Positions 17,860 to 60,931 are shown, counted from the first letter of the stretch. The stretch: 64,000 bases of DNA from Pyrinomonadaceae bacterium (GCA_045807865.1 JBJMGP010000060.1:43991-107990), one strand, 5' to 3'. Notes: generated by a model not told the origin, from the letters alone. Made by a program: numbers and translations.

Positions 17860-17917
17860 GGACTGAGTGAAAGGCACGACGCTTCTTATCACTCAGTCCT
17901 CAGTCCTCAGTACTTTT

Positions 17918-17919: not shown

Positions 17920-19390
<1,471 letters not shown>

Positions 19391-19422
19391 AAGTTTAGAA
19401 GGATCGAGTGTAGCAAATTGAA

Positions 19423-19489: not shown

Positions 19490-19574
19490 CCGGTCAAAAA
19501 TTACTAAACCCTGTGCCCGGCGGCGTCGTAAGGGGCTGGCAGGAAAGCGCGCGGCGCATGCCGGTCAGAGGATT

Positions 19575-20027: not shown

Positions 20028-20115
20028 CGCCTCTGCCCCTTAACGTAAGTAGCCATCCGAAAACCCTTGCGGCTATACTGAGCCTTCACCCGGAGACCGA
20101 AGGAGGAAGGCTCAT

Positions 20116-21309
<1,194 letters not shown>

Positions 21310-33984: not shown

Positions 33985-34140
33985 GTTCCTGCTTCGCTTA
34001 AACGTTCGCGCGGGGTCGGGGCGTGCGTCCCGCTCTGTGTGGAACGACTGAGGCTGTCAAACGGGGCCGAGGCGCGCCGCCCGGCGGGGGCACGCCTACT
34101 TTGATTGAAAACGACCGGGCGGTGGAAAGTCAAGAAGAAC

Positions 34141-34214
34141 GTAAGCCGTAAACCGTGAACCGTGACCAGAAGGAACTGCTTTCCTCTGGTCACGGTTCAC
34201 GGTTTACGGCTTAC
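34141..34214. repeat. heptamer-armed hairpin, CGTGAAC/CGTAAAC family, perfect 26-bp stem
   Basis: gtaagccgtaaaccgtgaaccgtgac (34141-34166) is the exact reverse complement of gtcacggttcacggtttacggcttac (34189-34214). Centre cagaaggaactgctttcctctg. It lies 5 nt beyond the stop of the upstream minus-strand gene. Confidence 0.9.
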
Positions 34215-34219
34215 GGGTT

Positions 34220-40257: not shown

Positions 40258-40917
40258 ATGGTGGCCAAGGGCTACGAGATCACGAACATCGTCGAGGCGC
40301 TGCGGGTCGGGAAGGGCCTGGCGGCGAGTGACTTCGACGACGGGGCGTGGAGGCGTGCGCGCGCGGCGCACATCGAGCGCTACTGGTCGGGCGAGGACGC
40401 GCCGCAAGGGCGCCGGGCCGAGGCGCGCGTGGCGTGGGACGCCCGAGGCTTCACCGTGCGCTTCGACTGTCGGCAGGAGGAGCCGCTCGTCGTGTCGAGT
40501 GCGCCGCGGCTCGAAGGCAAGACGATGCAGTTGTGGGATCGCGACGTGTGCGAGGTCTTCATCACGCCCGAGACCGAGCGCATCCAGCACTACTACGAGT
40601 TCGAGGTGGCCCCGACGGGCGAGTGGATCGACCTCGCGCTCACGGTCACGAAGGACGGGCGCGACACCCAATGGGACTTTCGCTCGGGCTTGACGGCCGC
40701 CGCGCGCGTCCGCCCCGGCTCGGTCACCTCTTCCCTGCGCGTCCCCTGGGAGGCGTTCGGTCGCGCGCCGCGCGCGGGCGAACGGTGGCGCTGCAACCTC
40801 TTCCGCTGCGTCGGCCAAGACCCCACCCGCGGCTACCTCGCCTGGCAGCCCACACACACACCCGAGCCCGCCTTCCACGTCCCCGAAAAGTTTGGGTGGA
40901 TAGTTTTTAAACCGTGA
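40258..40917 (+). CDS. carbohydrate-binding family 9-like (DOMON-like) protein
   Basis: 219 aa from the ATG at 40258 (the track's TTG at 40246 abuts the SD). ARVAWDARGFTVRFDC...WDRDVCEVFITP...YYEFEVAPTGEWIDL. The last codons ..FKP and the stop lie in the CGTGAAC repeat. Confidence 0.6.
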   Translation: MVAKGYEITNIVEALRVGKGLAASDFDDGAWRRARAAHIERYWSGEDAPQGRRAEARVAWDARGFTVRFDCRQEEPLVVSSAPRLEGKTMQLWDRDVCEVFITPETERIQHYYEFEVAPTGEWIDLALTVTKDGRDTQWDFRSGLTAAARVRPGSVTSSLRVPWEAFGRAPRAGERWRCNLFRCVGQDPTRGYLAWQPTHTPEPAFHVPEKFGWIVFKP

Positions 40918-40969
40918 ACCGTGACCAGAGAAAGTAGGCTCTTCTTCTGGTCACGGTTTACGGTTTACG
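40909..40969. repeat. heptamer-armed hairpin, CGTGAAC/CGTAAAC family, overlapping both convergent gene ends
   Basis: aaaccgtgaaccgtgac - cagagaaagtaggctcttcttctg - gtcacggtttacggtttacg. The plus-strand stop (40915-40917) and the minus-strand stop (40951-40953) are both inside the arms. Confidence 0.9.
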
Positions 40970-44514: not shown

Positions 44515-47046
44515 TCAGCGCTCTTCGGGGGCGCGACGCCCCGCGAGCAGCCACTCGCGCCCGACCGCGTAGAGCACCACGGCCAGCACGATGAACGGGA
44601 TGACGCCGAGCGCATCCGACCACGGCCCGGCGTTGAGCGGGTTCGTCTCGCCCCACGCCGTCATGCTCTTGTTGAAGTTCGTGAACCACGGCACGCCCGC
44701 GAGGAACGCGATGATGATGCCGGCGATGGCGCCGCCCGCGATGTAGCCCGAGGCCATCAGCACGCCGGGGCTCTTGTCCCCTTCGGCGACCAGCTCGTCC
44801 TCCGTCAGGTTGCGCCCGGCCAGGCGGCGGCGCAGGTACTTGTCCACCAGCCAGCGCACCATGCCGCCGACGAAGATCGGCGAAGAGGAGGAGAGCGGCA
44901 GGTAGACCCCGACGGCGAAGGCGAGCGAAGGGATGCCCGCCATCTCCAGCACGACCGCGATCATCACGCCCAGCAGCACGAGGCCCCACGGCAGCTCCCG
45001 GTTGAGGATGCCCTTGATGATGTAGCTCATCAGCGTCGCCTTCGGCGCGCCGAACTTCTCCACCTCGCGCCCGCCCTCGGTCGCCTTGTGCGTGCCGTTG
45101 ATGCCGGGGTCTACGAAGTAGACGGGGACGCCCGCGTCGTCCACCAGATACTTGCCGGCCTTCGCGTCCTTCTCGTCCACCTTGAACCACGCGCGGTACT
45201 GCTTCGTGTCGGCGATGCCCTGGTCGCCGGGCACGGTCTCGGTCGCCGGCCCGAGCTTCGAGACGTCGGCGCGCACCTGCGCCGGCAGTTGCAGCTTCGA
45301 CGCGGGGACGTAGACGGTCGCCGCGCTGTTGAGGCTGATGAGGATCGGCCCGAGGATCAAAGCCGAGGCGCCCGCGCCGATGAGGATGGCGATCTGCTGC
45401 CGCCACGGCGTCGCGCCGACGAGGAAGCCCGTCTTCAAGTCCTGCGAGGTCGTGCCGCCGTTCGAGGACGCGATGCAGACGATGGCCCCGATGGAGAGCG
45501 CCGTCACGTAGTAGCCCGGGCCGGTCCACCCGATGACGAGGAAGATGAAGCAGGTCAGGAGCAGCGTCGCCACCGTCATCCCCGAGATGGGATTCGACGA
45601 CGACCCGATCTCGCCCGTCAGGCGCGACGAGACCGTGACGAAGAGGAAGCCGAAGGCGATGATGAGGAGGGCGCCGAGCAGGTTGAACTGGAGGTGCAAC
45701 TGCGGGATGAGCATGATCGCCGCGACCAGCACGATGATGCCGCCCAGCACGAACTTCATCGACAAGTCCTGGTCGGTGCGCGGCGCCAGACTGGAAGCCG
45801 CCTGCCCGCCGCGCAGGTCTGCCAGCCCCCCTTTGAGCCCGTGCCAGATGGTCGGCAAGGAGCGGAAGAGGCTGATGATGCCGCCCGCGGCGACCGCGCC
45901 CGCGCCGATGTAGAGGACGTAGGCGTTGCGCACGGCGTCCGGATCCATCTGGCTGATGGGCGTCGTGCCCGGCGGGACGACCGTCGAGCCGAGGTACTGG
46001 CCGAAGAACGAGATCATCGGGATGAGCACGAGGTAGGCGAGCACGCCGCCCGCCGCCATGATGGAGGCGATCTGCGGCCCGATGATGTAGCCGACGCCCA
46101 AGAGCGCCGGGCTCGACTCGACCGAGACCGAGGCGTTGTTGAAGGGCGCGCCGAAGACCTTCGTCGGATACTCCTTCCACGCGTAGAACGCCTTCATCAG
46201 CGTCGTGTAGATGAGGCCGATGCCGAAGCCGGCGAAGATGGTCTTGGCGCCCGTGTTCGCCGACTCCGCGCCCGCGCCCGCGCGCTCCCACTCGGCCCGC
46301 GCCGAATCGGAGGCCAGCGCGCGCGACTCGTCGGACGCGCCCGCCTTCAAGACTTCGGCGCACGCCGTCCCCTCCGGGTATTTCAAAATCCCGTGCTGCT
46401 GGACGATGAGCGCGCGCCGGAGCGGAATCATCATCAGGATGCCGAGCAGGCCCCCGAGCGACGCGACCAGGATGGGGCGCGTCAGCTCAAGGTCGAAGCC
46501 GAGGATCATGATGGCCGGCATCGTCACGCCGACGCCGAAGGCAATCGATTCGCCGGCCGAGCCGGCCGTCTGCACGATGTTGTTTTCGAGGATGGTGGCG
46601 TTCCTGTCGTCCATCCGGAAGATAATGAAGGCGAAGGCGATTAGGGCGGCGGCCGCGATGCCGAGGTAGAGCGGGGACGTGCCCGACAGGAAGAGGAGCG
46701 CCAGGACTACGAGGCCGATGACGAGCGCCACGGCCGACAGGATTTTACTGCCGACCGTCGAGACGATGCGGAAGAGCGTGATGGAGATGACGGCGACGGG
46801 GATCGAGGCGCTCACCGTGAGGCCGACCTTCAGCACGAGGTAGAGCGACGACGCCCCGAAGACCATGCCGAGGAGGGTGCCGACGACGACGGCGCGCACC
46901 GTCAACTCGGGCATCGAGGTCTCGGGCGCGATGTATGGCTTGTAGGCGACCGCATGCGGCTCGTCGGGCCTGAAGCCGACTACGTCCGGGTACTCGTTCG
47001 TCGTGGCGACCTGGTGCTTTGCAGGGTCGAGTGCGTCTGACGACAT
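44515..47046 (-). CDS. OPT-family oligopeptide transporter
   Basis: 843 aa, more than 16 hydrophobic helices. N-terminal YKPYIAPETSMPELTVRAVVVGTLLGMVFGASSLYLVLKVGLT is typical of OPT. Contains a soluble insertion of about 150 aa. Confidence 0.85.
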   Translation of the reverse strand: MSSDALDPAKHQVATTNEYPDVVGFRPDEPHAVAYKPYIAPETSMPELTVRAVVVGTLLGMVFGASSLYLVLKVGLTVSASIPVAVISITLFRIVSTVGSKILSAVALVIGLVVLALLFLSGTSPLYLGIAAAALIAFAFIIFRMDDRNATILENNIVQTAGSAGESIAFGVGVTMPAIMILGFDLELTRPILVASLGGLLGILMMIPLRRALIVQQHGILKYPEGTACAEVLKAGASDESRALASDSARAEWERAGAGAESANTGAKTIFAGFGIGLIYTTLMKAFYAWKEYPTKVFGAPFNNASVSVESSPALLGVGYIIGPQIASIMAAGGVLAYLVLIPMISFFGQYLGSTVVPPGTTPISQMDPDAVRNAYVLYIGAGAVAAGGIISLFRSLPTIWHGLKGGLADLRGGQAASSLAPRTDQDLSMKFVLGGIIVLVAAIMLIPQLHLQFNLLGALLIIAFGFLFVTVSSRLTGEIGSSSNPISGMTVATLLLTCFIFLVIGWTGPGYYVTALSIGAIVCIASSNGGTTSQDLKTGFLVGATPWRQQIAILIGAGASALILGPILISLNSAATVYVPASKLQLPAQVRADVSKLGPATETVPGDQGIADTKQYRAWFKVDEKDAKAGKYLVDDAGVPVYFVDPGINGTHKATEGGREVEKFGAPKATLMSYIIKGILNRELPWGLVLLGVMIAVVLEMAGIPSLAFAVGVYLPLSSSSPIFVGGMVRWLVDKYLRRRLAGRNLTEDELVAEGDKSPGVLMASGYIAGGAIAGIIIAFLAGVPWFTNFNKSMTAWGETNPLNAGPWSDALGVIPFIVLAVVLYAVGREWLLAGRRAPEER

Positions 47047-47157
47047 CAGAAGTGACCTCCGACTGATACTTGTTCGAGCTACAAGGGGAAGAGCTTTTTA
47101 AGGAGACTTGTGGGCGCTACTTTACACGCGCCCCGGGGGCGGAAGCAAGCCAGTTAA

Positions 47158-47233
47158 GAGCCGTCAACCGTCAACCGTCAACCGTGACAAGAAGGTCTTG
47201 CCTTATCTTGTCACGGTTGACGGTTGACGGCTC
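47158..47233. repeat. heptamer-armed hairpin, CGTCAAC variant of the CGTGAAC family
   Basis: gagccgtcaaccgtcaaccgtcaaccgtgac - aagaaggtcttgccttatcttg - gtcacggttgacggttgacggctc. Three heptamers on the left arm, two on the right. It directly follows the kinase stop (47235). Confidence 0.9.
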
Positions 47234-47234
47234 T

Positions 47235-48905
47235 TCAGGGTTTGCAGACGCGGCAGGGGCGATACCCGGCGCCGAGGGCGGAGGTGGGCGAGTCGAAGTC
47301 TGCGCGCTGGCGCGCGGGGACGCGCGCGGCCCAGTCGCAGTCGGGCAGATGGTAGATGCCGAGGCTGCGGTTGCCGACGACCGGGTGCGCGGAGGGCTTC
47401 GCGGCCTTCGGCGCGGGCGGGGCGCCCTTCGCATGCGGGGCGAAGAGCGGCGGCGGTGGCGGGGTCGCGTGCGCGGGCCTGGCGAAGAGCGCCCCCGCCA
47501 CGCTCGCGGGGCCGACGCCGGGGGCGTGTGTACCGCCGCCGGGCAGCGCCGGGGTCGCCGTCTCGGCGTAGTAGACCGCGCGGAACAGTCCGTAGAAGAG
47601 GAGCAGCACGAAGAGGGCCATGAGCGTCAGCAGCATCCCCCCGAACCCTTCTGCGCCGAAGGCCGCCCAGACGTACCGCAGCAGGAAGTTGTGCAGCGGT
47701 ATCCACCAGATGTAGCCGTACGAGTCGCCGAAGGCGCTCTTGGCAAAGTAGAAGGTGTTGCCGCGCAGGTCGGCCGGGTCGCGCGGCGCGTTCGGCGCCG
47801 GCACCGACGCCCCCTGCGTGTTGAAGAGTCCCTGGACGGTCGCCGACGCGGGCGACGCGGGCGTCTCGCGCCAGGTCTTCGACCCCGGCCAGTAGGTCTC
47901 GATGCCGCGCCCGCGCGGCACAGGGGCACGGGCGACCTCGCGCGTGCGCGTGCGCACCTCCACGTCCGCGGGCGCGTTCATCCAGCCGGGAAGCGTCGAG
48001 CGCGGCTCGACCAGCTCGGTCAGCGGCGGCGTGGCCGCCGGGTCGGCGGCGCAGGCGGCTTTGAGCGTCTCGGCCAAACGCGCGTGCTCGCCGCCGAGGG
48101 CCTCGATCTTGGGGAAGAGCGCGGACGTGTCCGGGTGAGCAAAGTCGACGCGCGTGAAAAGGAGGTTCTCGTCGTGATGCTCGCCCCAGAGTTCCGGCCG
48201 TTCGGCCAGGCTGATGAGCGAGAGGTAGACGACGAGCGCGGAGAAGTTGTCCGTATCGCCCGAGAAGTGCGCCACGTCGCGCGCGGGGTGTTGGTAATGC
48301 TGGTGCCCGACCTCGCTCGCGCGGAAGCCCGCGAGCGCCGGCACGTACATGCCGTCGAGGTCTACGAGGCGCAGGCGACCGCCCCCGACGATGATGTTGC
48401 CGTGCTGCAAGTCGCCGTGCGCGATGCCCGCCTCGCGCAACGCGGTGACGAGCCTCACCCACTCGTCGGCGAGGTGGAGCAGAGCTTCGCGCCGCCCGAC
48501 GGCCTCGTCCAGGTAAACGTCGAGCGTCGGCCCCTCGACCCACTCCATGACGAGGACGGGGTAGCGGCGGCCCGAGACGAGGATGCCCTTCGGGAGGTAT
48601 TTGAACTGCGGGAGCGCGGCGATGCGTTTGGCGTTGAGGTGCGCGTCGAGCGCGCGGTAGCGCGCCTCGCGGTCGCCGAGGAAGCCGCGGAAGCAGCGCA
48701 CCGCAACCGTCTCGCCGCCGTCGTCGCCCGGGTTGAGCTTGAAGACGTAGGCGAACTGCCCCGACGTGACGAGCGGCATCCCCAGACGGTCAACCGCCGG
48801 CAGCATCCGCTTGAGCGAGGGCTCCTCGAAGCAGACCAGAGGGCACTGCACCGCCTCCGCGTAGTTACGCGCCGAGGGCCAGAAGTTTGTCGTCGCGTTC
48901 TGCAT
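47235..48905 (-). CDS. atypical Ser/Thr protein-kinase-like protein with TM region and C-terminal Ada-like zinc finger (TerY-P kinase position)
   Basis: 556 aa. VAVRCF (VAIK-like Lys region), catalytic loop HGDLQHGNIIV, LVDLDGM (DFG-like). Hydrophobic FGGMLLTLMALFVLLLFYGLF. Tail IYHLPDCDWAARV...GYRPCRVCKP. Confidence 0.75.
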   Translation of the reverse strand: MQNATTNFWPSARNYAEAVQCPLVCFEEPSLKRMLPAVDRLGMPLVTSGQFAYVFKLNPGDDGGETVAVRCFRGFLGDREARYRALDAHLNAKRIAALPQFKYLPKGILVSGRRYPVLVMEWVEGPTLDVYLDEAVGRREALLHLADEWVRLVTALREAGIAHGDLQHGNIIVGGGRLRLVDLDGMYVPALAGFRASEVGHQHYQHPARDVAHFSGDTDNFSALVVYLSLISLAERPELWGEHHDENLLFTRVDFAHPDTSALFPKIEALGGEHARLAETLKAACAADPAATPPLTELVEPRSTLPGWMNAPADVEVRTRTREVARAPVPRGRGIETYWPGSKTWRETPASPASATVQGLFNTQGASVPAPNAPRDPADLRGNTFYFAKSAFGDSYGYIWWIPLHNFLLRYVWAAFGAEGFGGMLLTLMALFVLLLFYGLFRAVYYAETATPALPGGGTHAPGVGPASVAGALFARPAHATPPPPPLFAPHAKGAPPAPKAAKPSAHPVVGNRSLGIYHLPDCDWAARVPARQRADFDSPTSALGAGYRPCRVCKP

Positions 48906-48916
48906 CGACTTCGCGC

Positions 48917-49669
48917 TTACGCCACGCCTACTCTGAGGACTGCCACGTCGTCGTCCTTCATCCTCGCCGCGGCGCGCTCGCGCCGGACGAGTTCGGAGAG
49001 CGAGCCATTTTCCGACGCGGCGAGCAGAGAATCAAACTCCTCCGCACGGGGGTCGCGCCGCGCGCACGAATCGAAGTACCAGGCCGAGAGCGCGTCCGTC
49101 ATCAGCAGGAACGTGTCGCCCGGCTCGGCCTCCCCGCCGGCCTCGACCAGTTTGGCGAGCGCCGCCTCGCGTAAGGATGCGCTCGAAGGCACGAGCGGCG
49201 GGGTCGTGCCGAACTCTTCGGCCCGGGAGACGGGGAAGGCGGCGAGCACCTCCCCGCCCCGCCGCTGCACGAGGCACGAGTCGCCGAGCGCCACCGCCTG
49301 CCAACTCAGCCGCCGCCCCGAGGTCTCCAGCCGCAGCCCGACGAGCGCCGCGTACGAACCCGCGCGCCGCTTCTCCTCCGCGTACCAGGAGAGCTTCCGC
49401 CCCTCCCACGAAGCGTGCAGCCACTCGCCCTGCTCCTTCAACCACGGCCCGAACTCGGCGGCCGTCAGCGGCGCACGCACCGCCCCGACCCACTCCGCCG
49501 CGAGCCGCGTCGCCCACCGCCGCGCGTCGAAAGCCTCCGTCGCCCCATCGGCCACGGCGAACCTCAAAGACCCCGCGTCGAACGCCAACGCGTCCTCGCA
49601 CTCCTCCACCCCGCTGCCCTCTTTCGGCAGGACGAAGTGCCGGGTTTGAATTCTCCAGCGGTCACCCAT
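48917..49669 (-). CDS. PP2C-family protein phosphatase-like
   Basis: 250 aa. FAVADGATEAF, AVALGDSCLV, FLLMTDAL, KDDDVAVLRV, giving a PP2C-like acidic metal-ligand pattern. Confidence 0.7.
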   Translation of the reverse strand: MGDRWRIQTRHFVLPKEGSGVEECEDALAFDAGSLRFAVADGATEAFDARRWATRLAAEWVGAVRAPLTAAEFGPWLKEQGEWLHASWEGRKLSWYAEEKRRAGSYAALVGLRLETSGRRLSWQAVALGDSCLVQRRGGEVLAAFPVSRAEEFGTTPPLVPSSASLREAALAKLVEAGGEAEPGDTFLLMTDALSAWYFDSCARRDPRAEEFDSLLAASENGSLSELVRRERAAARMKDDDVAVLRVGVA

Positions 49670-49706
49670 TGCGAAGAGCGGGAAGCAATCGCCGCGTCAG
49701 CGGCGG

Positions 49707-49734
49707 CCTACTGCCATCTGCCTCCTGCCTACTC
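49707..49734. repeat. one-armed run of CTGCCTA-type heptamers
   Basis: cctactgccatctgcctcctgcctactc between the vWA stop and the PP2C start. Same unit (reverse complement GCAGTAG) as at 30374. No complementary arm seen. Confidence 0.5.
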
Positions 49735-50592
49735 TCATTCCGCCATCCAGATGTGCGGGGGCATGCCGGTGAGCGACGTGCCGATCTCGTAGAACTGGAC
49801 GACCGAGGAGGGGTCGGCGTTGAAGACGAAGCCGCGCGAGCCCTCGGCCGCGGGGACGCCGAGCTGCTGCGCGGCGCCGAGGAAGTTTTCGGGGAGGACG
49901 CTGGAGATGCGGAAGAGCGTGCGGGCGAAGCCGTCCTTGAGCATCGACTCCTCGACCGGGTACTCGACCTTGCGCGAGCGGCTCGAAGAGACGTGGCAGT
50001 TGAAGAGGATGACGCGGCCGTCGTCGGTGCCGAGCGACATGAGCGCCTCGCCGTCCTGCGTGGGGTCGCCGTCGCTCGACTCGCCGTCGGTCAGGTGGAG
50101 CACCGTCGGCGGGAAGCCGCGCGGGTGCGACGAGAGCCAGCCCTCGACGATGCCGCGCACGCTCCCCAGCGCGCGGCACATCGGGGTGCCGCCCTCGGCG
50201 TGCGCGTGCACCCAGACGGGGTAGCGCACCGGCGTCTCGACGTAGCCGCCCACGCCGTCGGGCACGCGGCGGTAGCCCGACTCGATGCGCGCCGGGTTGT
50301 CGGCCACGGCCGAGACGGGCGCGACGGTCATCCCGGCGAGCGCGCCGCCTAAGCCCACCCCGACCTGCCGGCCGTAGCCGACGACGGCGACGTGGTAGTA
50401 GTCGCGCACCTCCTCGGTCTTGGTGCAGCGGATGACGAGGTCGTGCAGCGCGTGGTTGACCGCGTTGGCGACGAAGTCGGCCTTGCGCCCCGAGCCCTCG
50501 CCGCCGAACGGGTCGGCCATCGAACCCGACTGGTCGAGCAGGAAGACGATGAGCGTCGGGTTGGCGCGCGTGATCTGTGCCGTGTATGCCAT
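49735..50592 (-). CDS. von Willebrand factor type A (vWA) domain protein, TerY-like
   Basis: 285 aa. MIDAS DQSGSM, GGTPM and LTDGES. Confidence 0.8.
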   Translation of the reverse strand: MAYTAQITRANPTLIVFLLDQSGSMADPFGGEGSGRKADFVANAVNHALHDLVIRCTKTEEVRDYYHVAVVGYGRQVGVGLGGALAGMTVAPVSAVADNPARIESGYRRVPDGVGGYVETPVRYPVWVHAHAEGGTPMCRALGSVRGIVEGWLSSHPRGFPPTVLHLTDGESSDGDPTQDGEALMSLGTDDGRVILFNCHVSSSRSRKVEYPVEESMLKDGFARTLFRISSVLPENFLGAAQQLGVPAAEGSRGFVFNADPSSVVQFYEIGTSLTGMPPHIWMAE

Positions 50593-50619
50593 GCGGGAAC
50601 GATAAGTGATGGGTGATAA

Positions 50620-50688
50620 GAAGCTGTTAGCTGTTGGCTTTGAGCTTCATGCCTGGCTCACAGCTCAGAGCTGACGGCCAACAGCTTC
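50620..50688. repeat. heptamer-armed hairpin (GCTGTTA/GCTGTTG units) inside the operon
   Basis: gaagctgttagctgttggc ... gccaacagcttc with an inner gagct/agctc stem. Preceded by GATAAGT-GATGGGT-GATAAGA heptamers (50601-50621). Confidence 0.7.
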
Positions 50689-50690
50689 TC

Positions 50691-51698
50691 TCAGGCCGTG
50701 AAGGTTTTCGTCTGGAAGCCGCTCCGGTGCTCGCGCAGCAGGCCGAGGTAGATGTAGACGGTCAGCACGTGCAAAGAGGAGTTGAGCATCCCGAGCACGG
50801 CCGTCTGCAAGAGCAATGTCGGCAGCAGGTCAGGGCTCCCGCTGTTCGCGAAGCTCCACGTCACGACCCAGCCGAGGCCGGTGACGAGCAGCCCCCACAG
50901 GAAGAAGGTGATGAAGATCAACCCCTTGTTGCCCTTCGTCAGCCTGTAGCTCCGTTCGAGCGCGGCGTTGGGGCCGAGCCCCTCGACGACCGCGGCCGGG
51001 ACACTGACGGCAAACATCAGGCTGAAGATGACGCCCGGCACGATGAGCAGCACGTAGCCGAGGACGACAATGATGCTGTAGAGCAGCGTCACGAGGAAGA
51101 CCCTGGGCAGCACCTTCAACCCGCGCTTCAGGCACTCGCCCGCCGACGCGCGCCCAGCGCGCTGCAAGTCGATGACGGCGTAGGTGAGCGAGCCCGACAG
51201 CAGCGCCCCGCAGGCCATCGTCAGCAACGAGAGGAGCAGGGCAGGCACGACCACAGAGGTCAGAATGCTGTAGCTGCCGCCCCCGACCACCCCCACCGGC
51301 CCCGTCCCCACCCTTCCCAGATCGAGAAGGCCGTACTGGAGGAGAGCTTGGGGCATCATCGTCACCAGCACGAGGATGCCGACGAGCGTGAAGTGCTTGC
51401 GGTAGACGGCGAGCATCGGCGAGACCACGTCCCCCACGCCCTTGAAGGGCGGCGAGGGGATGTCGTCGGCCGGCGACGAGTGGCTGTCGTCGGCCGGCGC
51501 CCACGCGCCGCCCGGCTCGGAACTCTCGGGCGCCGCCGAGGACGGCCCGCCCGACCAATCGAAGGGCCGGCGCCCGCCCTGGAAGTCGTCGGCGGCGCCT
51601 GCGCCTTCGGCCGTGTACAGGCGCGCGTCGCACGCCTCGCAGGCGACAGCGCCGACGGGGTTGACGTGACCGCAGACCGCGCATACGGGGTTGTTCAT
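50691..51698 (-). CDS. zinc-ribbon / polytopic membrane protein
   Basis: 335 aa from the ATG at 51698, 7 nt after GGAG. CAVCGHVNPVGAVACEAC zinc ribbon, Pro/Ser/Asp linker, then about 6 TM helices. Confidence 0.6.
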   Translation of the reverse strand: MNNPVCAVCGHVNPVGAVACEACDARLYTAEGAGAADDFQGGRRPFDWSGGPSSAAPESSEPGGAWAPADDSHSSPADDIPSPPFKGVGDVVSPMLAVYRKHFTLVGILVLVTMMPQALLQYGLLDLGRVGTGPVGVVGGGSYSILTSVVVPALLLSLLTMACGALLSGSLTYAVIDLQRAGRASAGECLKRGLKVLPRVFLVTLLYSIIVVLGYVLLIVPGVIFSLMFAVSVPAAVVEGLGPNAALERSYRLTKGNKGLIFITFFLWGLLVTGLGWVVTWSFANSGSPDLLPTLLLQTAVLGMLNSSLHVLTVYIYLGLLREHRSGFQTKTFTA

Positions 51699-51918
51699 GA
51701 GGAAGCTCCTTACAGTCTGAAACTTTCGGCGGCAGGATTCTCTGAAGGCGCCGCGGGACGCCCTTTCCGACCGGCCGCGACGCGCCCAGACAATATCCAA
51801 CGCCGCGCCGCCGCCTGTCAATTACGACGCCGGCGGCCGCGCGCGCTATGCTACACTCGACGCTCCCGAATCTTTCGCACGCTCTTCCAAACCCGTTCAG
51901 GACTCGACCTACACGACG

Positions 51919-54276
51919 ATGCCGAAGCACCCCCTCCCTTGCGCGCTGCTGCTGCTCCTGCTGCTCCTGCTCGCCCCGCTCGCCGGCCCGGCGCCGCGCG
52001 CGCTGGCGGCGCGCGCGTCCGTGCCCGCGCCCGAGGAGGTGCTCGGCTTCCGCCCCGGCGACGACCGCAAGCTCGCCTCTTGGGCACAGACGGTCGAGTA
52101 CTTCCGGCGGCTGTCACAGACGAGCCCGCGCGTGAAGTTCGAGGAGTTGGGGAAGACGACGCTGGGCGCGCCCTTCGTCCTCGCGACCATCAGCGCGCCC
52201 GAGAATATCGAGCGCCTCGAAACTTACAAAGAGATCCAACGACTGCTCGCAGACCCGCGCCAGATCGGCGCCCGGCGCGAGGTCAAGGCCGAAGGTTACA
52301 TCAGCAACGGGAAGACCGTCGTGCTCATCACCTGCGGCGTGCACTCGACCGAGGTCGGCTCGTACCTCTCGGGGATGCTCATCGCGCACCGCCTCGCCTC
52401 CTCGGACGAGCCCGAGGTGCAGGAGATTCTGCGCAACACCATCGTCCTCATCGTGCCGTCGCTCAACCCCGACGGCGTGGACATCGTCAAGAACTGGTAC
52501 GACAAAACCCTCGGCACGCCGTACGAGGGGACGAGCCCGCCCGAGCTTTATCACCACTACGTCGGCCACGACGACAACCGCGACTGGTACGCCTTCACGC
52601 AGGTCGAGACGCGGCTGACCGTCGATAAGGTTCACAACGTCTGGCACCCGCAGATCGTCCACGACATACACCAGCAGGGCGCCTACGGCTCGCGCCTTTT
52701 CCTGCCGCCCTACATGCAGCCGGTCGAGCCGAACGTGCCGCGCCAGCTCGTCGAGGGCTACACCGAGTTGGGCCGCTTCATGGCGGAGCAGATGCTCAAG
52801 GCGGGCTTTCAAGGCATCACCTGGGACTCGACCTACGACGCCTGGACGCCCTCGCGCGCCTACTCGCACTACCACGGCGGCGTCCGCATCCTTTCCGAGA
52901 CGGCCTCGGTCAACCTCGCCACGCCCATCACGGTCAAGCCCGACCAACTGCGCGCGGGCGAGGGCTACGACCCACGCAAGGCGACGCCGAATATCCCTGT
53001 CCTCTGGCCCGGCGGCGAGTGGCACCTGCGCGACATCACGAACTACATGACGACCGCGGCCTTCGAACTACTCAAGCACGCCGCGCGGAACCGCGAGGCT
53101 TGGCTCAAGCGCTTCTACGCAATCGGCAAAGAGGCCGTGCGCCCGCGCCGGCCCGGCGAGTTGTTCGCGTTTCTCATCCCTCCTTCGCAGAACCGCAGCG
53201 TCCTGCTCGACATCCTGCGCCGCGCAGGCGTCGAGGTGGAAACGTCCAGACGCTTCACGGTCGGCGGCAAGAAGTACGGGCCGGAGACCGTCGTCGTGCC
53301 GATGGCCCAGCCATACGGGGCATTCGCAAAGGCCCTGCTCGAAAGGCAACAGTACCCCGACCTGCGGGACGAGTCCGGTCACCCCATCGCGCCTTACGAC
53401 GTGACGGCGCACACCCTGTCGCTCCTGATGAACGTAGAGGCACAGCCTGTCTACGCGCCCTTCACGCCCGTGCCGTCGGGCATCCGTGTCGGCGAAACCT
53501 CCGCGCCGGTGCGCCCGAGCGAAGCGCGGGCCAAGAAGCCAGCCCTCTACAAGTCGCACGTCCCCTCGATGGACGAGGGCTGGACGCGCTGGGTGCTGGA
53601 GAACCACCCTGCGTCAAAGGAGTCGCCCCACACTGCGCTCGAATACGCCTCGCTCGACGACGCGGAGATTCGCGCCGGGAACCTGTTCGCCAAGTACGAC
53701 GCCATCATCATCCCCGACCAGGCGCCGCGCGCGATATTGGAGGGCTACCGGAAGGGCTCGATGCCGGAGGAGTTGACGGGGGGCCTGGGCAAGGAGGGCG
53801 TGAAGGCTCTGCGCGAGTTCGTCGAGCAGGGCGGGACGCTCGTCGCCTTGAACGAGGCGTCGGACTTCGCCATCGAGCAGTTGAATCTTCCCGTCCGCGA
53901 CGTGACGGCCGACCTCAAGCACACGGAGTTCTACTGCCCCGGCTCGATCCTGCGCACCGTCCTCGACACGACGCACCCGCTGGCGAAGGGGATGCCGCGC
54001 GAGTCAATCGCGTGGGTCGAAGACTCGCCCGTCTTTGAGATCAAGAGCGACCCGCTGGCCCTCAACCGCGTCAAGGTCGTCGCGCGCTACCCTGAGACGG
54101 GGACGCCGCTCCTCTCGGGCTGGCTCCTCGGCGCCGAGCGCATCCGCGGCAAGGCCGCGCTCGTCGAGGTCGGGATAGGCAAAGGCAAGGTCTACCTCTT
54201 CGGCTTCCGCCCGCAGTACCGGGCGCAGTCGCTCGCCACCTACCCGCTCCTCTTCAACGCCCTCGCCGGGCGCTGA
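51919..54276 (+). CDS. secreted M14-family metallocarboxypeptidase-like protein with large C-terminal domain
   Basis: 785 aa, signal peptide. Zn motif context ITCGVHSTEVGS (HxxE), HHYVGHDDNRDW. Confidence 0.75.
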   Translation: MPKHPLPCALLLLLLLLLAPLAGPAPRALAARASVPAPEEVLGFRPGDDRKLASWAQTVEYFRRLSQTSPRVKFEELGKTTLGAPFVLATISAPENIERLETYKEIQRLLADPRQIGARREVKAEGYISNGKTVVLITCGVHSTEVGSYLSGMLIAHRLASSDEPEVQEILRNTIVLIVPSLNPDGVDIVKNWYDKTLGTPYEGTSPPELYHHYVGHDDNRDWYAFTQVETRLTVDKVHNVWHPQIVHDIHQQGAYGSRLFLPPYMQPVEPNVPRQLVEGYTELGRFMAEQMLKAGFQGITWDSTYDAWTPSRAYSHYHGGVRILSETASVNLATPITVKPDQLRAGEGYDPRKATPNIPVLWPGGEWHLRDITNYMTTAAFELLKHAARNREAWLKRFYAIGKEAVRPRRPGELFAFLIPPSQNRSVLLDILRRAGVEVETSRRFTVGGKKYGPETVVVPMAQPYGAFAKALLERQQYPDLRDESGHPIAPYDVTAHTLSLLMNVEAQPVYAPFTPVPSGIRVGETSAPVRPSEARAKKPALYKSHVPSMDEGWTRWVLENHPASKESPHTALEYASLDDAEIRAGNLFAKYDAIIIPDQAPRAILEGYRKGSMPEELTGGLGKEGVKALREFVEQGGTLVALNEASDFAIEQLNLPVRDVTADLKHTEFYCPGSILRTVLDTTHPLAKGMPRESIAWVEDSPVFEIKSDPLALNRVKVVARYPETGTPLLSGWLLGAERIRGKAALVEVGIGKGKVYLFGFRPQYRAQSLATYPLLFNALAGR

Positions 54277-54284
54277 AGGGCGGC

Positions 54285-55178
54285 TCAACGGAAGAGGACG
54301 GGGAACATCGCGGCGAAGAGCGCGATCAGGTAGACGACGGCGTAACCGCCGAAGTAGCCGCCGAAGGCGATGAGGGCGCGCAGCACGGCGAGCCCCAGCC
54401 GGCCGCGGTAGAAGACGCGCAGCGCCACGAACAGGTAGAGGATGTCGATGCCGAACTTCGCGAAGGCGAACGCCATGTTCTTCAGCGTCGGGTGGATGCC
54501 GATGAGGTAGTAGACCGGCCACATCAGCGTCGTCGTCAGCACCGCGAACGAGAGGTAGTGCATCGAGAAGACGAGGTGCTCGACGAAGTAGCGCCGCGAG
54601 AAGAAGTAGATGAGCTGGAGCAGCACGGCGAGCATGATGATCTGCAACGGCTGGAGCAGCGAGACGTTGCGCTGCCAGTGCTCGTTGACCGTGTCGTAGA
54701 GGGCCTCGACCGTGGTGCCCCTGCGCTCGGCCGCGCGGGCGAAGCGGCGGTCGTAGATGTCGCCGTTCGGCAGCTTAAACTGCGCGGCCATCTGCCGCTG
54801 GTTCTCGACGATGAGTCGGATGTCGAACATCGTCACCTGCTTCGAGGCCGTGTAGACGAAGAGGTTGAGGGCGAGGATGCCGAGGCAGAGGTTGAGCGGC
54901 TTGAGGTAAGGCCCGCGGCGCCCCGCCACCCACTCGGCGGTGAGCCGGCCCGGGCGGAAGAGGAGCGTCAGCAGCGTGCGCGTGAGCTTGGTGTCGAGGC
55001 TCGTCAGCTCCTGGGCCGCGTCCATGACGAAGTGGCGCACCGAGAGGTCGCGCGCCTCCGGCCGCTTCTCGCCGCAGCGGTGGCAGTAGTCGCCGACGAG
55101 AGCCGCGCCGCAGCTCGGGCACTCGCCCGGCCCCTCGGGCGCGGGCCGCTCCGTGACGGTCTGGACGGCCTCGGCCAA
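54285..55178 (-). CDS. DUF3667-like zinc-ribbon membrane protein
   Basis: 297 aa. CPSCGAALVGDYCHRCG followed by FRPGRLTAEWVAGRRGPYLKPLNL and about 5 TM. The upstream BMC-H ORF ends at 55183, leaving a 4-nt gap before this gene's start at 55178. Confidence 0.65.
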   Translation of the reverse strand: MAEAVQTVTERPAPEGPGECPSCGAALVGDYCHRCGEKRPEARDLSVRHFVMDAAQELTSLDTKLTRTLLTLLFRPGRLTAEWVAGRRGPYLKPLNLCLGILALNLFVYTASKQVTMFDIRLIVENQRQMAAQFKLPNGDIYDRRFARAAERRGTTVEALYDTVNEHWQRNVSLLQPLQIIMLAVLLQLIYFFSRRYFVEHLVFSMHYLSFAVLTTTLMWPVYYLIGIHPTLKNMAFAFAKFGIDILYLFVALRVFYRGRLGLAVLRALIAFGGYFGGYAVVYLIALFAAMFPVLFR

Positions 55179-55182: not shown

Positions 55183-55518
55183 TCACCCCTCCCCTTCGCG
55201 CTTGCCCCTGACGGAGCCCGCGATCTTCTTGCGCGTCGTCTCGCCCGTGTCGATGACCGGGAGGCCCTCGCCCACTTCGGCGTGCGGGCGCGGGATGACG
55301 TGCGTGGCGACGACCTCGCCGACCCTGCGCGCGGCGGCCGCGCCCGCGTCCACGGCCGCGCGCACCGCGCCCACCTCGCCGCGCACGATGGCCGTCACCA
55401 GACCGGCGTCGATCTTCTCGTAGCCCACCAGGCGCACGTTGGCGGCCTTGACCATCGCGTCCGCGGCCTCGATCATCGCCACCAGCCCGCGGCACTCGAC
55501 CATCCCTAGCGCTTCCAT
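55183..55518 (-). CDS. BMC-H shell protein (PF00936-type hexamer)
   Basis: 111 aa from the ATG at 55518, 6 nt after [66 protein letters not shown]...VIPRPH. Confidence 0.9.
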
Positions 55519-55551
55519 CCCTCTCACCTCCCCGTGCGTTCGGCCGCGCCT

Positions 55552-56079
55552 TCAGCCCGCGCGGCGGTAGACCAGTTTGACCTGCTGCACGCCCATCTGG
55601 TTGCCGATGGTCGTCGTATTCGTCAGGGTCTTCCCGTCGGAGGAGACCTGCCACTTCTGCGCGACGTTGAGTGCGTAAGTCCCGCCCTGCCCCTTCCGCT
55701 CGACGTGTGCCTCGGAGACGACCTTGTCGCCGTCCCACTTCGTCTTCGACTTGATCTCGCCCACGCCGAGCGTCGCCTGATTCGTCTCGCCGCGCTCGTC
55801 CGTGTAGTAGGTGAACTCCTTCACCTCCTCCTGCCCGTTGAGCCTGAGCGTGCGCTTGATTTTCAACTCCGGGTCGCTGTGCGCGATGACGAGCGTCGAG
55901 TCGGCCTTCGACAGTGGCCGCTCGCTGAACTCGCCAAAGTCGCTCTTCGCGCGGTCGATCTGCCACGTCCCCGAAAAGTCCGGGTGCGACTTCTTCTTAC
56001 CATCCCCCGCCACGGCGGCAGAGAGCAGGCACAACGTCAGGAGCAAGGTCAGGAGAGACGCGGGCAGCTGCCTACTCAT
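55552..56079 (-). CDS. hypothetical exported beta-rich (lipocalin-like) protein
   Basis: 175 aa. Signal peptide MSRQLPASLLTLLLTLCLLSAAVAG, followed by an alternating beta-strand pattern. The fold call is tentative. Confidence 0.5.
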   Translation of the reverse strand: MSRQLPASLLTLLLTLCLLSAAVAGDGKKKSHPDFSGTWQIDRAKSDFGEFSERPLSKADSTLVIAHSDPELKIKRTLRLNGQEEVKEFTYYTDERGETNQATLGVGEIKSKTKWDGDKVVSEAHVERKGQGGTYALNVAQKWQVSSDGKTLTNTTTIGNQMGVQQVKLVYRRAG

Positions 56080-56094
56080 CGAACACCTCTCGAA

Positions 56095-57462
56095 TCAGTT
56101 GCGCAGCGAGTGGATGGGCGCGGGGATGCGTCCGCCGCGCCGGATGAAGACGCTCGACGAAAAGGCGTTGACGGGCATGACGGGTGCGCTCCCGAGGAGG
56201 CCGCCGAACTCGACCACGTCGCCGACGACTTTGCCCGGCGCGGGGATGATGCGGACGGCGGTCGTCTTGTTGTTCATGACGCCGATGGCCATCTCGTCGG
56301 CGATGATGGCGGCGATGGTCTCGGCCGAGGTGTCGCCGGGCACGGCCACCATGTCTAAGCCCACGGAGCAGACGCTCGTCATCGCTTCGAGCTTCTCCAG
56401 CGTGAGCGCCCCGAGTTGCGCCGCCTCGATCATGGCGGAGTCTTCGGAGACGGGGATGAAGGCGCCGCTCATCCCGCCGACCGCGCTCGAAGCCATCGCG
56501 CCGCCCTTCTTCACCGCGTCGGTCAGAAGCGCCAGCGCCGCGGTCGTCCCCGGCGCGCCCGCGCGCTCGAACCCCAAAGCTTCGAGAATCTCCCCGACCG
56601 AGTCGCCCGGCGTCGGCGTCGGCGCCAGGGAGAGGTCGATGATGCCGAAGCGCAAACCCAAACGTCTCGCGGCCTCGCGCCCGACCAGTTCGCCGGCGCG
56701 CGCGAGCTTGAAGGAGAGCTTCTTAATCAACTCCGCCATCTCGTCGAGCGGCGCGTCCTGCGGCGCGTGGCGGACGGCGTGGTTGACGACGCCGGGGCCG
56801 GAGACCCCGACGTTGATGACGGCCTCGGGCTCGCCGACGCCGTGGAACGCGCCCGCCATGAAAGGGTTGTCCTCGACCGCGTTGGCGAAGCAGACGAACT
56901 TGGCGCAGGCCAAACCCCCTCGGTCGCGCGTGCGCTCGGCCATCTCCTTGATGATCTCGCCGGTGCGGCGCACGGCGTCCATGTTGATGCCGGCGCGCGT
57001 CGTCGCGAGGCTCAACGAAGAGCAGAGGCGCTCGGTCGCGGCCAGGGCCTCGGGGATGGAATCGACGAAGGCGCGCGTCCCCGGCGTGTCGCCCTTGTGG
57101 ATGAGCGCGGAGTAGCCGCCGATGAAGTCCACGCCGACGCGCTTCGCCGCCTCGTCGATGGCGCGCGCGAGCGGTATCAGTTCCGAAGCGTGGCGCGCGC
57201 GGTCGTAGACGAGCGAGGCGGGCGTGATCGAGATGCGCTTGTTGGCGATGCGCAGGCCCAACTCCTCGCCGATCTCGTCCACCACGGGGACGAGGCGCGC
57301 GGCCGTCCGCTCGATCTTCTCGCGGACGCACTCGGCCGTCTCTTCGACCGTGGCGCGGACGCAGTCGCGGAGAGAGAGCCCGAGCGTGACCGTGCGCACG
57401 TCGAGGTGCTCCATCTCGGTCATGCGCACGGTCTGTAGGATTTCCGCCTGTGTGTACTCCAT
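56095..57462 (-). CDS. UPF0210 / DUF711 family protein (function unknown)
   Basis: 455 aa. Strong family signatures: [101 protein letters not shown]. Confidence 0.85.
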
Positions 57463-57474
57463 GCCCCTCGGGTT

Positions 57475-58038
57475 CTAACGCAAGACGGTCGTGCTTAAGA
57501 AAAGGAGGACGAGGGAGAGGATGAAGAGCGCCGCCGCCACGAGGACGAAGCGCAGGCCCGAGTCGTCCGGCGTCTCTTCGAGGACGACGATGGCCTCCTC
57601 GCGCATCCGCCCGACCCGCGCGCGCGTCCCCTCCCGCACGCGCGCCACGCGGCCCCGGAGGTCGCCCGCCCGCCCCGCGTCATCAGCCTCGGCCGCCGCG
57701 GCCACTTCTGTCGCCGCCCGCGCCGACTCTTCGCGCGACTCCTGCGCGACGGCGACCTGCGCGGCCGGCTCGTCCTCGACGCCCACGTCCTTTATCTCCT
57801 CGGACGTTGGCGGCGGCGGCTCGGCGACGGCCGGTGGCCGCTCGAAGGGCGCGAACTCCTTCGGCGGCGGCGTCCAATCTTTAGTCGTCGGGGCGGCCTG
57901 CTCCTGCGGAGACAACTCGACGGCGGGCGGCGCGTCCTCCGCCTCCAAAGTCTTGCCGCACTGCTGGCAGAAACGCGACCCCGCGCGCGCCGCCGCGCCG
58001 CACGAGAGACACCTGCGAGAGATTTCGGGAAGCGACAT
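57475..58038 (-). CDS. zinc-ribbon protein with acidic linker and C-terminal TM anchor
   Basis: 187 aa. CLSCGAAARAGSRFCQQCG. Tail FVLVAAALFILSLVLLFLSTTVL. Confidence 0.55.
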   Translation of the reverse strand: MSLPEISRRCLSCGAAARAGSRFCQQCGKTLEAEDAPPAVELSPQEQAAPTTKDWTPPPKEFAPFERPPAVAEPPPPTSEEIKDVGVEDEPAAQVAVAQESREESARAATEVAAAAEADDAGRAGDLRGRVARVREGTRARVGRMREEAIVVLEETPDDSGLRFVLVAAALFILSLVLLFLSTTVLR

Positions 58039-58047
58039 AGGTCAAGG

Positions 58048-58123
58048 GGTGTCGGGTGATGGGTTCTGGTTGTTAGGTAGAAGCGGGCTCTGATCCATCA
58101 CCTGGAACCCATCACCCGACACC
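58048..58123. repeat. hairpin with perfect 19-bp stem (GGGTGAT-type units) inside the BMC operon
   Basis: ggtgtcgggtgatgggttc (58048-58066) is the exact reverse complement of gaacccatcacccgacacc (58105-58123). It sits between the ACT gene stop and the zinc-ribbon gene start. Confidence 0.85.
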
Positions 58124-58124
58124 T

Positions 58125-58568
58125 TCAAATCCTGTGCATCGCGTTGAAGAGGTCTTCGCGCTGGGCGTAGATGTGGACGCCCAGGCGGTCACCCTCGCCG
58201 CGGAAGCGGTCTTTGAGCGCGGCGACCGACTCGCCGGCGCGCGAGATGTCGGCGACGATGACCATCGCGAACTTGCCCTGCACGACCGTCTGGTTGATGT
58301 CGATGATGCTGCAACGCGCCCCGGCCAGAATCTGCGAGACGGCCGCGACGATGCCCGGGTGGTCGGTGCCGAAGACCGAGACGATGAGCCTGTCGGCGCG
58401 CCCCTCGGCCCCGCCCTTCGGCGCGCCGCCCTCGCCCACAGCGAGCGCCGGCTCGATGGCGCGGTACACGTCCATCACCAGCGCCTCGACCGTCCGCTCG
58501 TCGGCCGACGCCCCCAGGCGGCCGTAGACGGCGCGCGTGATGCGGTAGATGAGTTCCTCGTTCGCCAT
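58125..58568 (-). CDS. ACT-domain protein of the UPF0237 family with about 58-aa N-terminal extension
   Basis: 147 aa from the ATG at 58568. ACT core LIVSVFGTDHPGIVAAVSQILAGARCSIIDINQTVVQGKFAMVIVADIS...LFNAMHRI. Extension MANEELIYRITRAVYGRLGASADERTVEALVMDVYRAIEPALAVGEGGAPKGGAEG. Confidence 0.8.
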   Translation of the reverse strand: MANEELIYRITRAVYGRLGASADERTVEALVMDVYRAIEPALAVGEGGAPKGGAEGRADRLIVSVFGTDHPGIVAAVSQILAGARCSIIDINQTVVQGKFAMVIVADISRAGESVAALKDRFRGEGDRLGVHIYAQREDLFNAMHRI

Positions 58569-58579
58569 CCTGTGTACGG

Positions 58580-58906
58580 TCAGCGCCCGCGGCGCAGCTC
58601 GCGCGACGCCTCGATCAACTCGTCGGAGCGCGCGAGGTCTTCCTGCACGTCCACGCGGTCGACGATGCCGACGACCGCGGCCTCGATGGCCATCTCCTGG
58701 TCGCCGACGGCCGTGCGCGCGGCCTTCCCGTACGCGCACATCACGACCTCGCCCACGCCCGCGCCCAGACGGTCGGCCACGACGACGATATTCTTCGTCG
58801 GCTCCTTATCGAGGTCAATCGGATGCACGACCAAAAATCTGACGCCCTCCAGGTCGGGCGTCTTCTTGGTTGACCAAACGGTGCCGACGACTTTGCCTAA
58901 GAACAT
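58580..58906 (-). CDS. BMC-P pentameric vertex protein (EutN/CcmL family)
   Basis: 108 aa. MFLGKVVGTVWSTKK...LVVHPIDL...VVADRLGAGVGEVVMCAYGKAAR. Confidence 0.9.
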   Translation of the reverse strand: MFLGKVVGTVWSTKKTPDLEGVRFLVVHPIDLDKEPTKNIVVVADRLGAGVGEVVMCAYGKAARTAVGDQEMAIEAAVVGIVDRVDVQEDLARSDELIEASRELRRGR

Positions 58907-58989
58907 AAAGACCGTGAACCGTGAACCGTAAGCCGTGACGAGAGGGAAGACAGTTTTTATCTTGTCACGGTTTACGGTTCACGGTCTTT
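58907..58989. repeat. heptamer-armed hairpin, CGTGAAC/CGTAAGC family, filling the whole AldDH-to-BMC-P intergenic space
   Basis: aaagaccgtgaaccgtgaaccgtaagccgtgac - gagagggaagacagtttttatcttg - gtcacggtttacggttcacggtcttt. It abuts the BMC-P ATG (58904-58906) and overlaps the AldDH stop (58989-58991). Confidence 0.9.
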
Positions 58990-60839: not shown

Positions 60840-60854
60840 GGCCCCCTCCGTCCG

Positions 60855-60931
60855 CGTGAACCGTGAACCGTAAATCGTGACCAGTGAAAAGGCAGTCCTT
60901 TCCCGTCACGGTTTACGGTTCACGGTTTACG
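60855..60931. repeat. heptamer-armed hairpin, CGTGAAC/CGTAAAC family
   Basis: cgtgaaccgtgaaccgtaaatcgtgac - cagtgaaaaggcagtcctttccc - gtcacggtttacggttcacggtttacg. The TAA stop of the upstream BMC-H gene (60927-60929) lies inside the right arm. Confidence 0.9.

Follow-up and report, generated by a model that had tools for sequence, protein, structure and literature searches.

A Pyrinomonadaceae four-gene form of the TerY-P triad with an Ada-like kinase tail and a probable, optional zinc-ribbon membrane partner

Positions 47235-51698 of a 64,000-nucleotide (nt) stretch of DNA from a Pyrinomonadaceae bacterium (GCA_045807865.1, JBJMGP010000060.1:43991-107990; the whole stretch is called the window here) carry four co-directional open reading frames (ORFs) on the minus strand, encoding in order a zinc-ribbon membrane protein, a vWA protein, a PP2C-type phosphatase and a kinase. 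As judged from profile matches and gene order, the block very probably belongs to the TerY-P family, and it is a Pyrinomonadaceae-specific four-gene form of this known system rather than a new kind of system. What is new in it is a hairpin-anchored kinase that ends in an Ada-like His-Cys3 module, together with a probable, optional membrane partner that has a zinc ribbon and a YciC-like domain. We read the block, with a probability of about 0.6, as a chromosomal TerY-P-type phosphorylation-switch module.

TerY-P, a triad of vWA, PP2C and Ser/Thr-kinase genes, is described in PMC11090510 as first proposed to be a metal-sensing phosphorylation switch linked to tellurite resistance (Anantharaman 2012). 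The triad with an oligonucleotide/oligosaccharide-binding (OB) fold on its kinase was later shown to be a stand-alone anti-phage system (PMC11090510), the anti-phage report being attributed in both sources to Gao et al. 2020 (PMC11090510, PMC7699616), with activity against T7-like phages (PMC7699616). These sources agree with what an earlier note, made from the window sequence, had said of the triad, its name and its anti-phage role in a large screen. A variant from Pseudomonas aeruginosa protects against Autographiviridae whether the multiplicity of infection is low or high, and most cells survive (bioRxiv 10.1101/2022.08.12.503731), which argues against abortive infection for that variant. 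TerY-P kinases end in an OB fold or, in CoCoNuT systems, in a zinc ribbon, and this tail is thought to bind nucleic acid (PMC11090510). Our literature search found no mechanistic study of TerY-P.

The four genes are as follows, with lengths in amino acids (aa).

50691-51698, minus strand: gene 1, 335-aa zinc-ribbon polytopic membrane protein
49735-50592, minus strand: gene 2, 285-aa cytoplasmic TerY-type vWA protein with a complete metal ion-dependent adhesion site (MIDAS)
48917-49669, minus strand: gene 3, 250-aa PP2C-type phosphatase
47235-48905, minus strand: gene 4, 556-aa Hanks-type kinase with a membrane hairpin and an Ada-like C-terminal zinc domain

Triad membership and gene layout

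PADLOC-DB profiles for TerY-P matched each of the three triad proteins: TerY with gene 2 (1e-93, 311.9 bits, profile positions 1-272 of 277), PP2C with gene 3 (2.3e-33, 113.5 bits, positions 9-238 of 242) and STK_OB with gene 4 (1.7e-60, 203.5 bits), the last confined to the kinase half of the profile (positions 3-298 of 562). No PADLOC-DB profile matched gene 1. Pfam identified PP2C_2 in gene 3 (31.4 bits, cut-off 24) and Ada_Zn_binding in gene 4 (31.7 bits, cut-off 23), with weak matches to vWA and to kinase families (APH, RIO1, Pkinase).

A kinase-alignment scan over one genome per GTDB species returned 531 relatives, from which 80 loci were kept, and synteny was read by tblastn of the window proteins against these 80 loci. 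The order vWA-PP2C-kinase occurs in nearly every locus with enough flank. The hosts are Acidobacteriota, Gemmatimonadota, Chloroflexota, Cyanobacteria/Melainabacteria, Planctomycetota, Verrucomicrobiota, Paenibacillus, Actinomycetota and one archaeal bin. The earlier note had assigned the trio to TerY-P and had said that the assignment would fall if the proteins failed the TerY-P hidden Markov models (HMMs) and the trio was not conserved as a unit, or if the kinase lacked its catalytic Lys/Asp residues. The three profiles matched at the scores given above, the trio is conserved as a unit and the catalytic Asp residues are kept, and the TerY-P reading therefore stands. The block shares with validated TerY-P systems its three protein families, their order, and the catalytic and MIDAS residues, but its kinase carries a membrane hairpin and an Ada-like His-Cys3 domain in place of the OB half, a fourth gene lies ahead of the triad, and in this genome the block appears to lie outside any defence island.

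MIDAS residues D20, S22, S24, T136 and D169 are at least 95% conserved among 61 vWA homologues, and the metal-site acids of the phosphatase (E25/D26, D41, D130, D192 and D240/D241) are conserved to the same degree among 64 homologues; the PP2C phosphatase is apparently active. All the motifs quoted in the earlier note are present at 47235-51698, namely DQSGSM, GGTPM and TDGES in the vWA protein and HGDLQHGNIIV and LVDLDGM in the kinase, as are the four minus-strand genes in the order it gave.

An exact-sequence look-up of the window kinase returned no entry. The vWA protein searched by tblastn against 72,556 plasmids gave two cyanobacterial matches only, with no sign of plasmid carriage. A PHROGs search with the triad gave no matches, and a phage origin of the triad is thus unsupported.

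The sequence has a GC content of 68% and many spurious ORFs, including overlapping ones on the plus strand; the four minus-strand frames were taken as real because their third-position GC is 0.88-0.95. Gene 1 was started at the ATG at 51698, which has AAGGAG 8 nt upstream and opens the conserved N-terminus MNNPVCAVCGH, although the mechanical ORF reaches beyond it to 51821. Three candidate transcription signals accompany the genes.

51792-51821, minus strand: sigma-70-like promoter candidate, TTGACA, 18-nt spacer, GATATT (consensus match only)
50619-50689, minus strand: heptamer-repeat hairpin in the gap between gene 1 and the vWA gene (inverted repeat I5), -39.4 kcal/mol, z -4.7 (RNA fold)
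47156-47235, minus strand: perfect and larger heptamer-repeat hairpin over the kinase stop codon (inverted repeats I1 and I4), -56.6 kcal/mol, z -9.3

The promoter candidate lies about 95 nt upstream of gene 1 and is the one promoter-like site found in 46500-52500, where shuffles predict 0.3. The hairpin at 47156-47235 is likely to mark the end of the transcription unit. That at 50619-50689 ends about 27 nt before the start codon of the vWA gene, too short a gap to hold a promoter of its own. Further heptamer-repeat hairpins were found in the window at 10734-10821, 17841-17918, 19423-19489, 34140-34215 and 40908-40967; all are long and intergenic, with arms built of tandem heptamers of the types CCGT[GCA]AA, GGACTGA or GGCTGTT. 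The hairpin at the kinase stop belongs to the dispersed CCGTNAA class, and the one behind gene 1 shares its class with 19423-19489. These dispersed elements look like repetitive extragenic palindromic (REP) or terminator elements of this genome, and two members of the class bracket parts of the block. The repeat hairpin that the earlier note saw between gene 1 and the vWA gene is thus real, but its class is dispersed through the window. A block-specific regulatory role for this hairpin was considered and rejected because the same hairpin type occurs at six other window sites.

The kinase and its tail

AlphaFold2 models, whose confidence is given as pLDDT (the predicted local-distance difference test), divide the gene 4 product into the following parts.

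48006-48887, minus strand: Hanks-type kinase domain, aa 7-300 (confident AlphaFold2 model, Foldseek, STK_OB)
aa 309-371, minus strand: disordered linker (AlphaFold2)
aa 380-394, minus strand: amphipathic helix (AlphaFold2, pLDDT >90)
47559-47717, minus strand: helical membrane hairpin, aa 397-449, helices 397-415 and 421-449 (AlphaFold2, pLDDT >90)
between membrane hairpin and Ada-like domain, minus strand: Pro/Ala-rich disordered linker (AlphaFold2)
47238-47381, minus strand: Ada-like His-Cys3 zinc domain, aa 509-556 (AlphaFold2 pLDDT 81-91, Pfam Ada_Zn_binding)

Foldseek places the kinase domain closest to Mycobacterium tuberculosis PknB among PDB structures (TM-score 0.64 on the target). 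Catalytic D165 and N170 and metal-binding D182 are kept, and all 79 triad kinases compared carry H163-G-D165-L-Q-H-G-N170 and D182-x-D184-G unchanged. Across the same 79 kinases a His-rich segment, E198-x-G-H201-x-[HN]-Y-Q-H206-P207, is invariant in the activation-segment region. The departure from a standard kinase lies in beta3, where a profile alignment puts R70 (window 48696-48698) on the VAIK Lys of IKK-beta. Of the 79 triad kinases, 72 have Arg here and 7 have Lys, and by this comparison the beta3 Arg is a family trait and no defect of the window copy; being the family norm, it is no argument against TerY-P membership. Of the catalytic residues that the earlier note wished to see on alignment, the Asp residues (D165, D182) are therefore in place and the Lys is replaced by Arg. 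A WNK-like rescue by beta2 K56 was rejected, since that column holds K in 53 kinases, R in 12, Q in 9 and other residues besides, while position 70 is always Arg or Lys.

These replacements could mean that the kinase is a pseudokinase scaffold that binds without phosphotransfer, with the PP2C acting on other substrates. Such a scaffold would account for the Arg on the VAIK position, for the variability of the alphaC acidic residue E80 (E, Q or D across triad kinases) and for the lack of conservation of the nearby K56; it fits poorly with the invariance of the HGD Asp, N170 and both DxDG Asp residues, with a beta3 residue that never loses its basic character, and with the conservation of a dedicated PP2C partner alongside the kinase. 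We regard it as very unlikely. Because the catalytic residues are invariant and the beta3 residue is always basic, an active but atypical enzyme is favoured, and on this pattern of residues the triad kinases are probably an active, atypical clade.

From the structural model we infer that the kinase is tethered to the inner membrane by the two-helix hairpin. With such an anchor, both the kinase domain and the C-terminal zinc domain are predicted to be cytoplasmic. A single-span kinase with a periplasmic Ada domain was considered and is disfavoured, as the AlphaFold2 hairpin is confident and many triad kinases have two hydrophobic segments at this place. Most non-Ada triad kinases in the 80 loci have one or two hydrophobic segments right behind the kinase domain, and membrane tethering is therefore common among triad kinases. 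The earlier note had counted membrane anchoring as a departure from the triad; the anchoring itself is supported by the model, but it takes the form of a hairpin and is shared by many triads.

The C-terminal domain aligns with residues 30-74 of the N-terminal domain of E. coli Ada (1adn; E 8e-4), with C523, C551 and C554 at Cys42, Cys69 and Cys72 and with H519 at the methyl-acceptor Cys38. H519 and the three Cys residues are invariant in a 48-sequence homologue alignment. Like Ada (PF02805), the domain matches in sequence and keeps three of the four zinc ligands; unlike Ada, it has His in place of Cys38 and is joined to no AraC or methyltransferase part. Methylphosphotriester repair is unlikely for this domain because the nucleophilic Cys38 is replaced by the invariant H519, and by its sequence it is a non-catalytic Ada-like zinc module that lacks the repair nucleophile. 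The Ada-type zinc finger proposed in the earlier note is accordingly present, as a His-Cys3 variant.

Kinase tails vary extremely among the 80 loci and include Ada-like domains, long coiled-coil-like regions, WD40 repeats and zinc ribbons. Ada-like ends were found in Pyrinomonadaceae, in two other Acidobacteriota, and in one Gemmatimonadota, one Dehalococcoidales, one Burkholderiales and one Chloroflexota bin. Apart from the outlier L077, Ada-type kinases fall essentially into a single Acidobacteriota-centred clade when kinase domains are placed on a neighbour-joining tree. The OB half of STK_OB was unmatched in ten diverse triad kinases, which the profile covered only over its first ~268-305 positions, so that the OB fold defines a subtype and not the family. 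A related 787-aa kinase at L030 242-2605 carries four tandem Ada-like zinc domains at its C-terminus.

Two groups of known systems come near this architecture. [quoted passage not shown] No McrB/McrC-like CnuB/CnuC genes, no CnuH/CnuE genes and no helicase or HEPN genes were detected by Pfam among the flanking genes examined. Membrane-anchored kinases paired with PP2C phosphatases are also known as PknB/PstP and as PpkA/PppA of type VI secretion, and PpkA combines its kinase with a vWA domain. The kinase fold here is closest to PknB, but the vWA domain is a separate cytoplasmic protein and the beta3 Lys is Arg; moreover, no extracytoplasmic sensor domain is expected in a kinase whose anchor is a hairpin.

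The zinc-ribbon membrane gene

The gene 1 product was modelled by AlphaFold2 with pLDDT 80.3 and has three parts.

51621-51698, minus strand: Cys4 zinc ribbon, aa 1-26 (weak Pfam match to a double zinc ribbon)
aa 30-68, minus strand: variable acidic Ser-rich disordered linker (AlphaFold2)
50718-51434, minus strand: polytopic YciC/UPF0259/DUF975-like domain of about six helices, aa 89-327 (AlphaFold2)

A motif, IPSPxFKGxGDVxSPxLxVYRKHF, is conserved ahead of the membrane domain. Matches to UPF0259 fall below the cut-offs (Pfam 25.9 against 31.4; NCBIfam YciC 32.8 against 227), and homologues of gene 1 carry precomputed PF06790 matches; by sequence, the protein is a distant YciC/UPF0259 relative only. 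A PDB fold search with gene 1 found nothing significant, the best matches being PNS1/CTL1 and CysZ at E >0.03. The membrane domain resembles YciC/UPF0259, DUF975 and GPDPase_memb through weak matches and through the PF06790 annotation of its homologues, but what sets the small gene 1 subfamily apart is its N-terminal zinc ribbon and its strict triad linkage. The family of the membrane domain is very large (17,600 cluster representatives at E <=0.001); few members make up the close full-length zinc-ribbon subfamily (54 representatives at E <=1e-30, 133 sequences in a word-indexed search).

The earlier note had proposed looking for the zinc-ribbon gene upstream of triads in other genomes. An HMM of gene 1 finds it in 19 of the 80 GTDB loci and in the metagenome locus L083; in each case it shares the strand of the vWA gene and lies 2-193 bp upstream of it. 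All of these loci are from Pyrinomonadaceae, and the same HMM search found gene 1 in none of the non-Pyrinomonadaceae loci; the linkage thus holds, but within one family and with repeated loss. Three further divergent homologues (44-47% identity) are triad-adjacent too. Clustering of flanking ORFs shows the adjacency of gene 1 and the vWA gene kept in about six different neighbourhoods. Gene 1 is missing in several loci whose flanks match those of carriers, namely L010, L026, L024 and L034, and also L012, L019, L021, L022 and L031. Mapped on the kinase tree, this distribution implies one gain and at least five losses. Identity among gene 1 proteins is 24-64%, against 66-96% for the vWA proteins of the same loci, and gene 1 thus evolves much faster. 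Large upstream ORFs in L012 and L081 were considered as divergent copies of gene 1 and rejected as unrelated proteins.

If gene 1 were a mere syntenic neighbour, the functional unit would be an ordinary three-gene triad. Its restriction to Pyrinomonadaceae and its absence from flank-sharing loci such as L010, L026, L024 and L034 could be read in this way, as could the -39 kcal/mol hairpin that separates it from the vWA gene in the window, the lack of a PADLOC match, and a membrane domain drawn from a very large generic family. A chance neighbour would hardly be expected, however, to keep same-strand adjacency to the vWA gene in about six unrelated contexts with gaps down to 2-11 bp, nor would all its homologues with readable context be triad-adjacent; the small size of the close zinc-ribbon subfamily points the same way, as do, in the window, the ~27-nt gap behind the hairpin and the sole promoter-like site upstream of gene 1. 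We consider the bystander explanation serious but the less probable of the two, and a functional partnership of gene 1 with the triad reasonably probable. Gene 1 is probably an optional, fast-evolving fourth component, neither a chance neighbour nor a universal part of the system.

Genomic neighbourhood and proposed function

On one side, the block is flanked by a CarboxypepD_reg protein, a 300-aa protein without an assigned family and an OPT transporter, and on the other by an M14 peptidase, DUF3667, a bacterial microcompartment (BMC) shell protein, DUF711, a zinc-ribbon protein and an aldehyde dehydrogenase (Pfam). No integrase, transposase or other mobile-element gene was found in the window flanks of the block, in agreement with the earlier note's description of housekeeping-like flanks free of integrases and transposases. 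Relatives keep this neighbourhood down to ~63-68% kinase identity, and the shared neighbourhood together with the lack of mobile-element genes suggests vertical inheritance.

Other relatives lie in different surroundings. L017 and its group are flanked by a patatin, a 1451-aa ParA/nSTAND1/TPR-S/patatin protein, three TIR proteins, an nSTAND1-TPR NTPase and a TIR-PLD protein. In L017 these genes occupy 159-7107 and 11910-20751 and form a dense conflict-gene island around the four-gene module; similar flanks were seen in L016, L018, L020, L024, L025, L029 and L034. L010, a triad without gene 1, has an 836-aa Eco57I-methylase/BsuBI-PstI-endonuclease fusion gene inserted between its vWA and PP2C genes (6477-8984), and L031 has a PemK toxin gene directly upstream. 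We count the TIR/STAND/patatin/PLD islands, the inserted restriction-modification gene and PemK as defence context in favour of an anti-phage reading. By analogy with the tested systems, such a role for the block is slightly favoured over the contrary.

The main rival to this reading is a housekeeping switch for stress or metal sensing, domesticated in Pyrinomonadaceae and without a part in phage defence, which would respond at the membrane to metal or envelope stress and control cell physiology. It draws on the chromosomal position conserved among housekeeping genes to the kinase identity given above, with no mobile-element genes, on the metal-sensing switch hypothesis of Anantharaman 2012 with its tellurite-resistance link (as cited in PMC11090510), on the strict conservation of E198, H201, H206 and P207 in the kinase activation-segment region, and on the several metal sites of the module (MIDAS, PP2C and two zinc modules). 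Pfam, however, detected no TerD-, TerB- or TerC-type genes in ten flanking proteins over 41.5-60.9 kb; homologous triads are anti-phage on their own (PMC7699616; bioRxiv 10.1101/2022.08.12.503731); relatives of the same clade lie in TIR/STAND/patatin/PLD islands or carry the inserted restriction-modification gene; and Ada-type kinases are scattered in other phyla, suggesting horizontal transfer. We judge the domesticated switch to be rather unlikely.

Several observations nonetheless weigh against a TerY-P defence module of the proposed kind. The window and its closest relatives share a conserved housekeeping neighbourhood (M14 peptidase/DUF3667, OPT), and the block diverges at about the pace of its neighbours, with 62-88% identity for OPT and 80-91% for the kinase N-terminal domain in the same loci; in these genomes the block looks like a case of stable vertical inheritance rather than a mobile defence island. 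The Arg at the ATP-anchoring Lys position means that kinase activity is assumed from the remaining residues. Gene 1 has been lost at least five times while the triad was kept, and its window copy is parted from the triad by a very stable hairpin. Finally, no tested TerY-P system has this kinase tail or this fourth gene.

For the TerY-P-type switch, we hypothesize that kinase and phosphatase would together set the phosphorylation state of a target, the likeliest candidates being the vWA protein and/or the Ser-rich linker of gene 1. The MIDAS site may capture an acidic ligand that comes from host or phage. The part that binds the trigger or the target could be the variable kinase tail; in the window copy this Ada-like tail probably binds nucleic acid or protein while anchored at the membrane. 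The gene 1 product would act there as an optional, fast-evolving co-sensor, substrate or effector, and the output, by analogy with tested TerY-P systems, would be non-suicidal phage protection. Confidence in the details of this mechanism is low. More specifically, the block might be a distinct four-component membrane subtype of TerY-P, in which the Ada-like module of the hairpin-held kinase detects phage nucleic acid or an entry factor and the gene 1 product is substrate or effector; we consider this clearly doubtful, but if true it would offer a first tangible lead to the site and manner of infection sensing by TerY-P.

Whatever its output, the block bears on how these triads may work. Kinase tails emerge as interchangeable parts (OB fold, zinc ribbon, Ada-like zinc domain, coiled coil or WD40), and with most triad kinases membrane-tethered, tail and membrane are where the sensing step should be sought. 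The Arg found across the family in place of the ATP-anchoring Lys is an oddity open to biochemical testing, and the optional zinc-ribbon partner offers a natural comparison of systems with and without it. With the block stably and vertically placed in a lineage of soil acidobacteria, one may ask whether domestication has turned some TerY-P modules to housekeeping signalling.

Some minor observations concern the neighbouring genes and more distant triads. A BMC-like cluster at window 55183-60905 consists of the BMC shell gene, a 180-aa gene, DUF711, the zinc-ribbon protein and the aldehyde dehydrogenase; relatives have EutN/CcmL and ACT genes at this position too. A second zinc-ribbon polytopic membrane protein (DUF3667) is encoded at 54285-55178, one gene off the block and past the M14 peptidase. 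It occurs in two tandem copies in L001, L002, L003 and L007, and no sign of its membership in the module was seen. At L051 7353-8612, a UPF0236-type transposase-like gene interrupts the vWA gene of the Fontivita pretiosa triad. The kinase of L054, from an archaeal Hadarchaeum bin, is nearly identical in the tree to the copy of this planctomycete, which suggests recent transfer or contamination of the bin.

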